64,000 nt of DNA from an uncultured Solirubrobacteraceae bacterium (GCA_963775485.1 CAVZIH010000003.1:120252-184251), one strand, 5' to 3'. Positions 49,563 to 53,387 are shown, counted from the stretch's first letter. Translations and numbers: made by a program. The notes: generated from the letters alone by a model not told the origin.

Positions 49563-52500
49563 GTGCCGGGTAAATGGACCACATTCCAGGCGCCGTCGAC
49601 CGTGGGGTCGTTCAGCGCGGACACGATGCTCCTGCTGAGCGACGGCTCGGTGCTGATCCACGAAGCCGAAGGCGCGAACTGGCTGCGCCTGACCCCCGAC
49701 GACGAAGGCAACTACCAGAGCGGGGAATGGTCGGGACTCCTGAAGATGGCGAACTCGCGACAGTTCTTCTCCTCGGGGATCCTGGGCGACGGGCGTGTGT
49801 ATGCGCTGGGCGGCGAGTACGGCAGCGCCGGCGGAGACGGCTCGCTGGGAGAGATCTTCGACCCCGGCACCAACGAATGGAGCGAACTGAGCAAGCCGGC
49901 CCGGTTCGAATACATCAAGGGAGACGTTCCGGGCTGCATCCTCGCGGACGGGCGGGTCCTCTTCGGCAATCTCGGAGGCGGCCCACCGTTCGCCGCGATG
50001 TGGGACCCGGTGACCGGCATCTGGACCGAAGCCGGAACCAACTTCGGCGCGAAGTCCGACACCAAGCGAAGCAACTGCGACGAGGAGACGTGGACGCTCC
50101 TGCCCGACGGCTCGGTCCTCACGGTGGCCACCAACAACGAGCCGAAGGCCGAACGTTACATCCCCTCACTCGATGAATGGGTGCCCGCCGGCGAAACGCC
50201 GTCGAGCCTCGTGCTCACGGAAATCACCGATCCCGAAAAGAACAAGGTGGCGATCTTCGAGATCGGCCCCGCGATCCTCCTTCCGGGCGGAGAAGTGTTC
50301 GCGATCGGCGCCACCGGCCAGAACGCGCTCTACAAACCACCGTCGACGAGCAAACCCACGGGCGAAGGGAAATGGAAGGCCGCCGCGGCGTTCCCGCCCG
50401 ACACGAGCAAAGGGCATGTCTGGCCGACCCTCACCGCGAGCGACGCCCCCGCCGTCCTGCAGACCAATGGCAAGGTGCTGTGCATCGCGGGAAGGCTCCA
50501 CGAGACCACGGAAGAAAATGCGAAAGGCGAAAAGACCCACGACTACTTCTCCGAAGGAGCAGAACTCCTCGAGTTCGACCCATCCAACGGGTCGATGACG
50601 CCGTTCCCGGCGGTGCCCTTCTCCTCCTCCGAAGCACCGGAAACATGGGTCTGCCGGTTCCTGCTCCTCCCGACCGGACAGATCCTCCTCACCACCCAGT
50701 CGCAGGAAATCCACCTCTACACGCCCGAAGCCTCGGAAAACACCCCCCAGGCGAGCTGGAGGCCCGCGCTCAGCAACCCTCCGGAAACGCTCGTTCCGGG
50801 CCACGTGTACACGATCGAAGGGACCCAGCTCAACGGTCTCTCGCAGGCCGTCAGCTACGGCGATGACGCACAGATGGCGACCAACTACCCGATCGTGCGG
50901 CTGACGAACTCCTCGGGCAAGGTCGCCTACCTGCGCACGTTCAACTTCTCCACCCTCGCCGTCGCGACCGAAGGGGCAACCGTCAAGGCCGAGGTCGAAG
51001 TCCCCCATTCGCTGGCGGCCGGCGCATGGTCGATGGTGGTGATCGCCAACGGCATCGAATCCGACGCGGTCGACGTCGAGGTCTCACTCCAGGACTGCCT
51101 CCTGCTGCTCGAACGCGACACCTTCGCCGAAGGCGAAATCGAGGCGATGGTCAACCTGAGCGGAGCACCGGCGATCATCGATCCGGCGCTCTACGTGATC
51201 GTCGAAGGCTATACCGCCGAAGACATCGGCCTCACTCCAGCAAACCTCTCCAACCCACCCCACAAGCCCGAGATCGCCGAACCGATAAAAGGGATCGGGG
51301 CAAGCTTCGCCGGCTCCGTCCTGCCCGAAGATCCGTCCGCACCCGCCAACACCGTCCAGCGATTCACGTTCCCGTTCGAGCTGTCGTTCTCCGGCACGAG
51401 CGTATTCGCCGGGGCCCCGCAGACGCTCACGCTGACAGCCAGGTTCGCACCACCGGCCCAGCCCACGGTGCAGGCCCACGCCCCCATCTACCTGACCGCA
51501 AAGCCCGACCCGTTCATCCTCCACGGGGACATCTCCGCCGGCTACGAATGGTATCTGAGCACCGACCTCCGCGTGTTCCACCTCAAGGCCGGAGAACGGC
51601 GCTTCGGCGCCAGCCTCTCCAGCTCGGCCACGCCGAGCGAAGCGGCCACCGGGTTCATCGGGGAAGTGATCGAAAACCTCAACGGCGACACCGCCGCCGC
51701 AGGCCCGCTGTTCGAAAAAATCTCCCAGGAAGAGGACATCGCGGAAACCCAGCTCGCGCTCGAACCAGAAGACGGGGACGGCAACAGGCTCTTCAACTTC
51801 GCCCTCGCTCGCGTCCGTCTCCAGGACGTTGCCGCGGCCAAACAGGTCGGCGTCTTCTTCCGCATGTGGCAGGCCCAGCAGACGAACGCGACGTTCGACG
51901 CCGCGACGATCTACAAGTCGCTCACCAACCCGGAAAAAGTACCCATCCCGGTTCTCGGTGTCGAAGGCGACGAGGTGACCACGATCCCCTTCTTCGCGGC
52001 TCCGCGCGTGGACACGGCCGTCGAATCGATGGCCGAACAGCGCGATCCGCTCAACCGGCGGACCATCAAACCGGACAAACTCGGCGCTGAAGCGTTCGCC
52101 TACTTCGGCTGCTGGCTGGACATCAACCAGCCGGGTGAAACCTGGTTCCCCGACCGCCTCGTCGGTGGCAGCCCCGCCGACGTGCCCGCGGGACCGTTCA
52201 CCGGGATGGGTGAACTGCTCTCGATCCAGCAGCTGGTGCGCAGCACCCACCAGTGCATCATCGCCGAGGTCAACTACGCCCCCGATCCGATCCCGGCCGG
52301 CGTCGACCCTTCCGACTCCGACAAGCTGGCCCAGCGCAACCTCACGCTCGTGGCGGTTCCCAATCCCGGCGTGCCGGGCTCGCGCAGCGCGCCGCAGACG
52401 ATCGAGATCCGGCCCACCCCGGTGCCGCTGCCAGCCGGCCACCGCCCCGACGAGCTGATGATCACGTGGGGAGACATCCCGGACGGGAGCTCCGCCGAAC

Positions 52501-53387
52501 TGTGCCTGCCGGCGGTGAGCGCGACGGTCATGCTCGAAATGGCCGCCGACATGTATGCGACCCATCGCTTGAAACTGCTCGACGCCCACACCGTCGCGAT
52601 CGACGTCGCGCCCGGCGGCGTGAGCTACCTGCCGATTCCCGCGTCGGCGAACGGGCAGAACTACGTCGGCCTGCTTACGGTGACCCTTCCCGCGGGTATA
52701 CGCAACGGTCAGGAATTTGCCCTGACCGTCAAGCAGGTCACGAGCGCCGGCGCCCGGGACGATGAGCAGGTCGGGACGGAGGTAGCGGCCACCGCGGTCG
52801 CGGACGCGTTCACGTGGCGACGCGTGCTCGGCGTGTTCCACCTGAAAATCCCCGTCTCGACCAAGAGCAACCTGCTCGAAGGCGAGCGGCGCACGCTGTC
52901 GATCATGCGCTGGATCGCCCGATCGATCCCCGTCGAGAGCCGCTGGTATCCCGTCTTCGAGCGCTACCTGGTCCAACTCGGCGAACGCGTGCGCGGGATG
53001 GGAGGCAACCCGGTGCTCGTGTTCCCGTCGCCCGCCGGCAACTGGTGGGAACCCGGCGGGGGCCGCGAGGGCGGCGGGGGCCACGAAGGCGACCATGGCC
53101 ACGAAGGCGGCAAGGGCCACGAAGGGGGGCGCGGCCACTGCCACGCCGACCTCGAGTTCACCGGCAAGGTGGTGGGAGTGGACCACGATCGCTTCGGCGA
53201 CTTCGAGGGCTTCCTGCTGCAGGAGCTCTGCAGCGGCGGGATCGTTCGCTTCAGGACCCGCCACGTGGCGATGGCCGAGGTCGTGGAGTACGCCTGGCGG
53301 GCACAGGTCACGGTGTCGGTGTTCGCAGACCGGCGTGAGCGCGAATCGCCGGTGAGCGTCGTCTACCGCGAGCCCCCGGCCGTGTGA
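49563..53387 (+). CDS. Large protein: Kelch-like beta-propeller + Ig-like domain fused to an uncharacterised ~760-aa C-terminal module
   Basis: RBS GAGGAGGAG before GTG 49563. Repeats LLSDGSVL, LGDGRVYALGGE, LADGRVL, LLPDGSVL, LLPGGEVF, LQTNGKVL, LLPTGQIL. Ig-like domain ends VVIANGIES. No signal peptide. Confidence 0.85.
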   Translation: MPGKWTTFQAPSTVGSFSADTMLLLSDGSVLIHEAEGANWLRLTPDDEGNYQSGEWSGLLKMANSRQFFSSGILGDGRVYALGGEYGSAGGDGSLGEIFDPGTNEWSELSKPARFEYIKGDVPGCILADGRVLFGNLGGGPPFAAMWDPVTGIWTEAGTNFGAKSDTKRSNCDEETWTLLPDGSVLTVATNNEPKAERYIPSLDEWVPAGETPSSLVLTEITDPEKNKVAIFEIGPAILLPGGEVFAIGATGQNALYKPPSTSKPTGEGKWKAAAAFPPDTSKGHVWPTLTASDAPAVLQTNGKVLCIAGRLHETTEENAKGEKTHDYFSEGAELLEFDPSNGSMTPFPAVPFSSSEAPETWVCRFLLLPTGQILLTTQSQEIHLYTPEASENTPQASWRPALSNPPETLVPGHVYTIEGTQLNGLSQAVSYGDDAQMATNYPIVRLTNSSGKVAYLRTFNFSTLAVATEGATVKAEVEVPHSLAAGAWSMVVIANGIESDAVDVEVSLQDCLLLLERDTFAEGEIEAMVNLSGAPAIIDPALYVIVEGYTAEDIGLTPANLSNPPHKPEIAEPIKGIGASFAGSVLPEDPSAPANTVQRFTFPFELSFSGTSVFAGAPQTLTLTARFAPPAQPTVQAHAPIYLTAKPDPFILHGDISAGYEWYLSTDLRVFHLKAGERRFGASLSSSATPSEAATGFIGEVIENLNGDTAAAGPLFEKISQEEDIAETQLALEPEDGDGNRLFNFALARVRLQDVAAAKQVGVFFRMWQAQQTNATFDAATIYKSLTNPEKVPIPVLGVEGDEVTTIPFFAAPRVDTAVESMAEQRDPLNRRTIKPDKLGAEAFAYFGCWLDINQPGETWFPDRLVGGSPADVPAGPFTGMGELLSIQQLVRSTHQCIIAEVNYAPDPIPAGVDPSDSDKLAQRNLTLVAVPNPGVPGSRSAPQTIEIRPTPVPLPAGHRPDELMITWGDIPDGSSAELCLPAVSATVMLEMAADMYATHRLKLLDAHTVAIDVAPGGVSYLPIPASANGQNYVGLLTVTLPAGIRNGQEFALTVKQVTSAGARDDEQVGTEVAATAVADAFTWRRVLGVFHLKIPVSTKSNLLEGERRTLSIMRWIARSIPVESRWYPVFERYLVQLGERVRGMGGNPVLVFPSPAGNWWEPGGGREGGGGHEGDHGHEGGKGHEGGRGHCHADLEFTGKVVGVDHDRFGDFEGFLLQELCSGGIVRFRTRHVAMAEVVEYAWRAQVTVSVFADRRERESPVSVVYREPPAV
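53061..53144 (+). repeat. 18-bp tandem repeat encoding a GHEG His-rich linker
   Basis: ggccgcgagggcggcggg / ggccacgaaggcgaccat / ggccacgaaggcggcaag / ggccacgaaggggggcgc / ggccactgccac. Confidence 0.85.

Follow-up and report, generated by a model that had tools for sequence, protein, structure and literature searches.

A 64,000-nucleotide (nt) stretch of DNA from an uncultured Solirubrobacteraceae bacterium (GCA_963775485.1 CAVZIH010000003.1:120252-184251), here referred to as the window, carries at positions 49563..53387 of the plus strand a gene whose product very probably belongs to a self-contained, solo, leaderless, and horizontally mobile family of two-part proteins, in which an exchangeable N-terminal head is joined to a conserved and undescribed C-terminal tail made of several sub-modules. 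The gene is a single uninterrupted open reading frame (ORF) that encodes 1274 amino acids and stops at 53387. An earlier note, made from the DNA alone, had described it as one large leaderless ORF with a strong ribosome-binding site, and this description was confirmed: the GTG start at 49563 follows an AGGAGG sequence, a homolog with 86% identity (P0003) begins with the same residues, and the protein has no hydrophobic N-terminal stretch, nor does the alternative upstream GTG at 49482 add one. The note had also placed a sharp boundary at VEVSL|QDC, which corresponds to residues 509/510 (bases 51089/51090) and leaves residues 510-1274, 765 amino acids, for the tail. The alignments of the family, including those of members with unrelated heads, all begin at tail residue 1-5, and therefore the junction is real and exact.

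Judged by sequence comparison, the tail is a module of no described family, in agreement with the earlier note, which could not assign it to a named one. It had no match in Pfam, NCBIfam, PADLOC, or PHROGs (a single PHROG match falls in the head) and none among the PDB sequences, even when a 62-member profile was searched at E ≤ 10; no publication on it turned up in the literature searches, and RefSeq annotates the family members as "hypothetical protein" or names them after the head. Tail matches fell into 1583 clusters at 50% identity (E ≤ 1e-3; 545 clusters at E ≤ 1e-30), well beyond chance, and numbered more than 1000 in the 90% collection. The tail is encoded in at least 462 species-representative genomes, which cover at least 11 phyla and come nearly all from soil or peat, and the record titles of many carriers point to acid soils and peat. 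The carriers belong to Actinomycetota, Acidobacteriota, Pseudomonadota, Bacteroidota, Verrucomicrobiota, Gemmatimonadota, Cyanobacteriota, Chloroflexota, Fibrobacterota, Binatia, and others, monoderms included; in Bacillota, the gene lies on plasmids. The closest relatives of the window protein come from Solirubrobacteraceae genomes assembled from soil. The occurrence in scattered soil bacteria that the earlier note had suggested was thus verified, while its extension to fungi is borne out by one truncated example: in KAH8889993.1 of Thozetella sp. PMI_491 ("subtilisin-like protein, partial"), a sedolisin is joined at the same junction to the first 120 tail residues (starting KDC...DRSTF; 38% identity, E 1e-14). 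No phage-borne copies were found. On the megaplasmid of Ralstonia solanacearum, and also in R. syzygii, a hypothetical protein of 1134 amino acids (L086, 6189-9593) matches the tail only over residues 235-752 (D2 to OB), behind another N-terminal region; several records of the PLSDB gene table, which is incomplete, list no feature for this stretch.

The heads attached to this tail are of many kinds. They were tallied over the best 150 of the 1583 clusters plus 80 loci, which included 104 diverse representatives with a head longer than 150 residues. The commonest class was the sedolisin (26 of 104), followed by Kelch (23), LodA lysine oxidase (11), BNR propeller (8), M14 carboxypeptidase (5), tyrosinase (3), protein-glutaminase (3), and phosphoesterase (2) heads, with one each of M35 peptidase, M4 peptidase with an FTP propeptide, and beta-propeller lectin; together with eight classes without any family match, this makes at least 19, the majority of them families of enzymes or lectins. 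The sedolisin heads are true relatives of kumamolisin-type sedolisins (S53), matching kumamolisin at E 1e-47 and retaining the Pro-kuma_activ activation domain. A family confined to the Kelch head, without swapping or peptidases, is contradicted by this tally, and the swappable heads, peptidases among them, that the earlier note had suggested were indeed present. Moreover, the tail sequences indicate that heads have been exchanged repeatedly among tails, because the tails of one sedolisin/M14 pair are 76% identical to each other and only 42% and 38% identical to the nearest tails with the same heads. Similar pairs combine an unknown head with a BNR head (tails 64% identical) and LodA with tyrosinase (60%); head classes are intermixed on the tail tree, and the nearest tail bears a different head in 31 of 53 members. 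Some genomes hold adjacent family members: an unknown head beside M14 (L074, 5027-12343), a BNR-like head beside M14 (L064, 5847-12235), and two divergently transcribed sedolisin forms side by side (L070, 3966-12466).

The gene was divided as follows, with tail residues given here and below in tail numbering; scores of the predicted models are the predicted local distance difference test (pLDDT) and the predicted template modeling (TM) score, pTM.

49551..49556, plus strand: ribosome-binding site AGGAGG, read directly from the sequence, 6 nt ahead of the GTG start at 49563.
49563..50762, plus strand: residues 1-400, galactose-oxidase-like Kelch propeller of seven blades in which the copper-site residues are replaced (Pfam Kelch_1, blade motifs, and profile match; residue 400 is an approximate boundary).
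50763..51089, plus strand: residues ~401-509, immunoglobulin (Ig)-like "early set" cap, equivalent to galactose oxidase domain 3 (the galactose oxidase profile alignment reaches the C terminus of that chain).
51090..51599, plus strand: tail 1-170, D1, Ig/cadherin-like beta-sandwich (AlphaFold2 model; VIA-align Z ~7 to ICAM and cadherin domains).
51633..51716, plus strand: tail 182-209, helical hairpin 1 (secondary structure of the model).
51786..52409, plus strand: tail ~233-440, D2, elaborated beta-sandwich and most conserved part of the tail (62-member alignment; separate model).
52410..52859, plus strand: tail ~441-590, D3, pilin/adhesin-like beta-sandwich beginning with PDELMITWG (model and VIA-align; the D2/D3 boundary is approximate).
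52863..52997, plus strand: tail 592-636, helical hairpin 2, which carries RWYPVFERYL (model).
53007..53144, plus strand: variable linker, here Gly/His/Glu-rich (HEGDHGHEGGKGHEGGRGH), pLDDT <50.
53145..53369, plus strand: tail 686-760, terminal OB-fold domain with DRFGDFEGF (VIA-align; proteins in which this domain directly follows a head).
53370..53387, plus strand: final five residues and stop codon (translation; the protein ends ...VVYREPPAV).

The AlphaFold2 model of the tail, built on a 62-sequence alignment, is compact and scored a pLDDT of 88 and a pTM of 0.80. D1 opens with a conserved motif, C-x4-DRSTF-G-x-DEV in the consensus sequence. D2 carries FNFALARVR, VFFR, YFGCWLDINQ, HQCIIAE, and SDKLAQRNL, which are nearly all of the motifs listed by the earlier note; all nine that it quoted are present where it had put them. 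In the 62-member alignment, fifteen polar residues of D2 (R258, R306, Q317, D319, N322, C341, D344, N346, H387, C389, E393, Q415, R416, N417, and N425) reach a conservation of at least 95% over the whole range of head classes. Folded alone, D2 was predicted to be a beta-sandwich with large insertions (pLDDT 87), and its comparison with solved structures gave neither an enzyme fold nor a close relative (best Z 5.2; Foldseek E 5e-3), which is not proof of a new fold. The best VIA-align matches of D3 were the pilin CppA (Z 7.5), the N-domain of PorA (Z 7.2), and CfaE (Z 7.1). W619 and R625 of hairpin 2 are at least 95% conserved, and the helices of the model amount to two short amphipathic hairpins with nothing resembling a membrane-inserting region. 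The linker is rich in histidine across the family (12.5%, compared with 1.7% in the remaining tail, a sevenfold difference), and at least 4 histidines are found in it in 16 of 62 members. For the OB domain, VIA-align returned SilF (Z 10.4), CusF (9.8), pertussis toxin S5 (9.2), CipA (9.1), typhoid toxin PltB (8.9), and the pro-region of protein-glutaminase (8.5).

Known structures resembling the tail are related to it in parts only. In whole-tail Foldseek searches against the PDB and viral models, only generic Ig-repeat proteins were found, at a TM score of ~0.1, the top matches (E 1e-7 to 1e-4) being the MSCRAMMs SdrG and ClfB, antigen I/II, PrgB, and pilins, which like the tail are strings of beta-sandwiches; the ESM Atlas gave only unnamed clusters and a weak lead to CARDB. 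Unlike these Gram-positive surface adhesins, the tail is compact rather than arranged as beads on a string and has no recognized sequence repeats or families, and in contrast to a wall-anchored adhesin of the MSCRAMM kind, the window protein lacks a signal peptide and ends in an OB domain instead of an LPXTG-type anchor. The last 75 residues form the same small OB barrel as the CusF/SilF metallochaperones and the AB5 B subunits (root mean square deviation of 2.4-3.3 Å over 73-80 residues), with a His-rich stretch just ahead of it; however, there is no sequence similarity to either, and the conserved residues of the tail barrel are K693, D700, D704, and aromatic or glycine residues, not Met or His.

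The seven blades and the Ig-like cap that the earlier note had read in the head, as well as the lack of copper-ligand motifs, were both corroborated. Pfam finds only a weak Kelch motif, and seven evenly spaced "xDGxV" blade motifs lie at residues 27, 76, 129, 182, 242, 302, and 371. A 33-member profile of the Kelch type matched galactose oxidase, Streptomyces GlxA, and fungal AA5 oxidases (E 6e-20 to 1e-17), and its alignment to galactose oxidase spans profile positions 30-492, including both the propeller and domain 3 (E 6e-20). At the place equivalent to the cap, a Bacillus homolog has a match to Pfam GO-like_E_set. In the alignment to 9g8h, the five active-site residues of galactose oxidase, Cys228, Tyr272, Tyr495, His496, and His581, correspond to G, N/C/D, W, V, and Y in the head. 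By its sequence, the head thus has the layout of galactose oxidase minus the copper-radical site, and therefore a binding propeller is more likely than an oxidase. The AA5 copper radical oxidases (galactose oxidase and GlxA) have the same seven-bladed Kelch propeller as the head, with the Ig-like "early set" domain behind it, whereas the window protein lacks the five copper-site residues, including the Cys228-Tyr272 cross-link pair, as well as a signal peptide, a membrane anchor, and an N-terminal carbohydrate-binding domain, and has the 765-residue tail. A second kind of Kelch head (starting MPW..., with "DVFCSHHA"; L082 7387-11034, P0234, P0254, and P0257), seen in Bacillus, has matches to both GO-like_E_set and Glyoxal_oxid_N and retains Phe-Cys at the cross-link site of galactose oxidase, so some Kelch heads may still be copper radical oxidases. 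In an alphaproteobacterial copy (L022, 8545-12214), the Kelch head is broken across three frames, the mark of a decaying gene or of an assembly error.

Shorter relatives define which parts of the tail can stand behind a head. The relatives of the Kelch head include many head-only proteins of ~507 amino acids and a group of 585-597 amino acids in which the OB domain alone, without D1-D3, follows 1-10 residues after the head. This head-plus-OB form was recognized by phmmer in 34 of 120 shorter Kelch relatives, a lower bound, as P0338 and P0346, which phmmer missed, carry the same end-domain motif on inspection. The His-rich stretch usually precedes the OB domain in these proteins too, and a head-plus-OB form also exists for the sedolisin head. 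Given the long and the head-plus-OB forms, the layout of the family, as read from its sequences, is a head, an optional body (D1, D2, D3, and the two hairpins), a variable and often His-rich stretch, and the OB domain.

None of these forms begins with a signal peptide, as judged by a hydrophobicity window and not by a dedicated predictor. Not one of the 205 N-terminally complete members has a signal-peptide-like N terminus (a single sequence passes the hydrophobicity cutoff and is not signal-peptide-like), and the copies annotated by RefSeq in Bacillus, Ralstonia, and Paraburkholderia have no signal peptide. The same is true of the short forms of the Kelch head, both head-plus-OB (P0293, P0310, P0338, P0346, P0426, and others) and head-only, and of the complete proteins, some of them fungal, that are related to the sedolisin head but have no tail (0/118). 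The latter form a leaderless clade of kumamolisin-like sedolisins (P0394-P0513) with the start motif IP-x-GY-x-x-L-x-GSERRP and fungal members in Glutinoglossum, Laccaria, and Thozetella. The idea that the tail substitutes for a signal peptide was therefore rejected, since leaders are equally missing from head-only and head-plus-OB proteins related to the Kelch or the sedolisin head.

The genomic surroundings portray a gene that travels alone. In the window, it lies in a variable island (43442-58300) that follows a tRNA gene, the only Rfam match in a search that found no regulatory RNA around the gene:

43442-43513: tRNA-Lys (Rfam), at the start of the variable island.

Synteny with L001, the locus of an 86%-identical relative, covers the flanks of the island (41.0-43.5 kb and 58.4-61.7 kb), and the gene described here is the only island gene that the two loci have in common. 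In L001, it stands among genes for a WS/DGAT protein, a methyltransferase, an FMN reductase, and a cupredoxin-like protein, with neither a sedolisin nor a STAND protein. No integrase was seen among the scanned ORFs of the window's island. The G+C content is ~72% for the window and only 64.6% for positions 50001-52000. Genomes hold one or two copies of the tail gene, for which reason a sorting tag with many paralogs per genome was rejected, and among the genomes searched, the gene was found in 2 of 60 congeneric species and in none of 40 genomes from other genera. Plasmid copies adjoin IS21 or a recombinase trio. No recurrent neighbor gene was found in the 80 loci, where the commonest real neighbor clusters occurred in 7 loci, and the 98 nearest ORFs of 59 loci matched 103 different Pfam families, none of them in more than 5 ORFs.

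Head-to-head with the gene in the window lies a separate sedolisin gene (47076-49328, minus strand; 750 amino acids with Pro-kuma_activ and an S8/S53 domain, starting with an evident signal peptide or membrane anchor), in which the earlier note had seen a possible association. This was not substantiated: a separate sedolisin is missing from the syntenic island of L001 and from the neighborhoods of the 80 loci, where all sedolisin matches fall inside genes of the tail family, and the neighboring sedolisin was rejected as a partner. It is also only 25-30% identical to the fused sedolisin heads, which are leaderless. Other neighbors include a gene for a STAND-type protein (43484-46987, plus strand; 1167 amino acids) with an adenylate/guanylate cyclase, an AAA_16 ATPase, and TPR repeats, which weakly matches Pycsar cyclase models; in L003, the tail gene is immediately preceded by a homolog with 43% identity, and L002, L039, and L069 have more distant homologs no further than 10 kb from the tail gene. 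A convergent gene for an Rrf2-family regulator (53363-53827, minus strand) overlaps the 3′ end of the tail gene by ~25 bases. In the B. cereus plasmid NZ_CP117422.1 (L082, 3647-19854), the Bacillus copy is found between genes for a SIR2-family protein and a KAP-family P-loop NTPase, beside a type I-C CRISPR-Cas system, and on a B. wiedmannii plasmid the same KAP NTPase follows the copy, with type VII secretion system/EndoU toxin genes nearby. At the copy on the Ralstonia megaplasmid, no type III effector promoter box was present upstream, and a single distant match was at chance level.

As to function, the reading that we favor, which we regard as possible but short of probable, is that the tail would serve as a nonenzymatic holding or targeting scaffold for enzymes and lectins that act outside the cytoplasm. 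The adhesin-like beta-sandwiches and the conserved polar pocket of D2 would bind a widespread ligand or surface, the OB end with its His-rich lead-in would be a minimal handle for binding, oligomerization, or metal- or pH-sensitive switching, and the enzyme or lectin of the head would be kept at its site of action after a putative Sec-independent release. We favor this scaffold because the heads are enzyme and lectin families of the extracellular type, because the peptidase heads keep their zymogen propeptides (Pro-kuma_activ and FTP) and include the acid-active kumamolisin kind, which fits action outside the neutral cytoplasm, because the tail is predicted to be built of adhesin-like sandwiches and an OB barrel, and because no partner gene is needed. 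The earlier note had called the tail a carrier or assembly chassis; its swappable payloads were found, and a carrying or assembling role is a reasonable reading, which we infer. Further than this, the tail, or minimally its His-rich and OB end, could mark an unrecognized Sec- and Tat-independent route by which folded enzymes and lectins of the extracellular type are released, displayed, or delivered in at least 11 bacterial phyla and some fungi, with the D2 pocket as the docking or ligand site; we consider such a route unlikely. Several observations weigh against a scaffold acting outside the cell. The matches of D1, D3, and the OB domain (Z 7-10) lie in a range that the tool rates as common for unrelated folds, and the dense invariant cluster of His, Cys, Asp, Asn, Gln, and Arg in D2 resembles a catalytic or metal site more closely than the surface of a typical adhesin. 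With all 205 members and all 118 tail-less sedolisin relatives leaderless, an intracellular role is equally compatible. In addition, the Bacillus copies stop before the OB domain, and the B. cereus copy sits among defense genes (SIR2 protein, KAP NTPase, and type I-C CRISPR-Cas).

These last points lead to the alternative of an intracellular conflict or defense protein, in which the tail would sense a component of an invader and the swappable N-terminal head would be the effector. The uniform absence of leaders, the patchy and mobile distribution (an island beside a tRNA gene, copies on plasmids, and IS and recombinase genes close by), and a solo gene with the pattern of N-terminal exchange seen in many single-gene defense proteins are all in line with it, as are the position of the B. 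cereus copy and the STAND cyclase-ATPase adjacent to the gene in the window and L003. As a hint, a few of the 98 nearest neighbors also match defense models such as DpdJ, BrxH, and SngC. However, PADLOC assigns the protein to no family, no named head class is a usual effector (nuclease, TIR, SIR2, or patatin), the sedolisin heads are of the acid-active kumamolisin kind with the propeptide kept, and the nearest neighbors in the 59 loci are mostly housekeeping or unrelated genes; we judge a role in defense unlikely. Less probable is that the tail, minimally the OB domain, is a giant regulatory pro-domain that would fold back and keep the head latent, with the His-rich stretch as a pH or metal trigger and the His/Cys/Asp center of D2 as a metal-binding or self-processing site. 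Such a function would suit the OB domain directly behind heads without a body, the resemblance of this domain to the pro-region of protein-glutaminase, itself one of the head classes, the enrichment of histidine ahead of it in long and short forms, the invariant or nearly invariant H387-x-C389 and C341, and the many carriers from acid soils and peat. It sits poorly with the Kelch and lectin heads, which have no known activity to restrain, and with the junction, at which no cleavage motif is known.

The similarity of the OB fold to the pentameric AB5 B subunits and the crystal-forming CipA (Z ~9), the compact and rigid tail (pTM 0.80), and the solo gene without a partner would also accommodate a self-assembling chassis, whose tails or OB ends would oligomerize and so present several heads on a ring, cage, or lattice. 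OB matches at Z ~9 are common for unrelated folds and the Bacillus members lack the OB end; we hold this chassis to be improbable. The least likely of the readings is a single-chain AB-type toxin or large bacteriocin, the tail of which would bind a target cell and deliver the enzymatic head. The order of an N-terminal enzyme and a C-terminal binding region is that of such toxins; the heads include a phospholipase-type phosphoesterase, a glutamine deamidase, metalloproteases, an H2O2-generating lysine oxidase, and lectins; the carriers include plasmids of a plant pathogen and of insect-associated Bacillus; and the protein is leaderless, as are colicin-like bacteriocins. Nevertheless, the tail has no helices beyond its two short amphipathic hairpins and lacks any hydrophobic or helical region suited to translocation, the gene has no conserved immunity or lysis gene as a neighbor, and the head in the window lacks a catalytic site.

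The recombination of one constant module with many others is a logic that the family shares with polymorphic toxins, the C-terminal-domain cargo of the type IX secretion system (T9SS), endolysins, and defense proteins with swapped effectors, and it differs from each of them. Polymorphic toxins have a constant N-terminal trafficking part, a C-terminal toxin, and an adjacent immunity gene, whereas in the tail family the variable part is N-terminal and no neighbor is conserved. T9SS cargo carries a signal peptide and is restricted to Bacteroidota, in contrast to the absence of signal-peptide-like starts described above and a spread over at least 11 phyla that include monoderms. The heads of phage endolysins cut the cell wall, unlike those of the tail family, and the effectors swapped in defense proteins are of other kinds than these heads.

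Collectively, a four-domain module of 765 residues with an invariant polar center, present in more than 1500 clusters and hundreds of soil species, was found to have no family name, solved relative, or paper, and two of its features are new findings: the OB end-domain can be fused directly to heads, and the tail-less relatives of the heads are leaderless too. Cultured carriers exist in Paraburkholderia sprentiae WSM5005, Bacillus cereus 2-6A, and Nostoc sp. CHAB 5824. With its clean junction and naturally exchanged heads, the module may be a ready-made scaffold on which enzymes could be displayed. If these proteins act inside the cell, they would represent a new kind of modular intracellular system. 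If they act outside it, predictions of secretomes that rely on signal peptides would miss enzymes exported or released by many soil bacteria, which would bear on estimates of extracellular enzyme potential in the turnover of peat and soil carbon.

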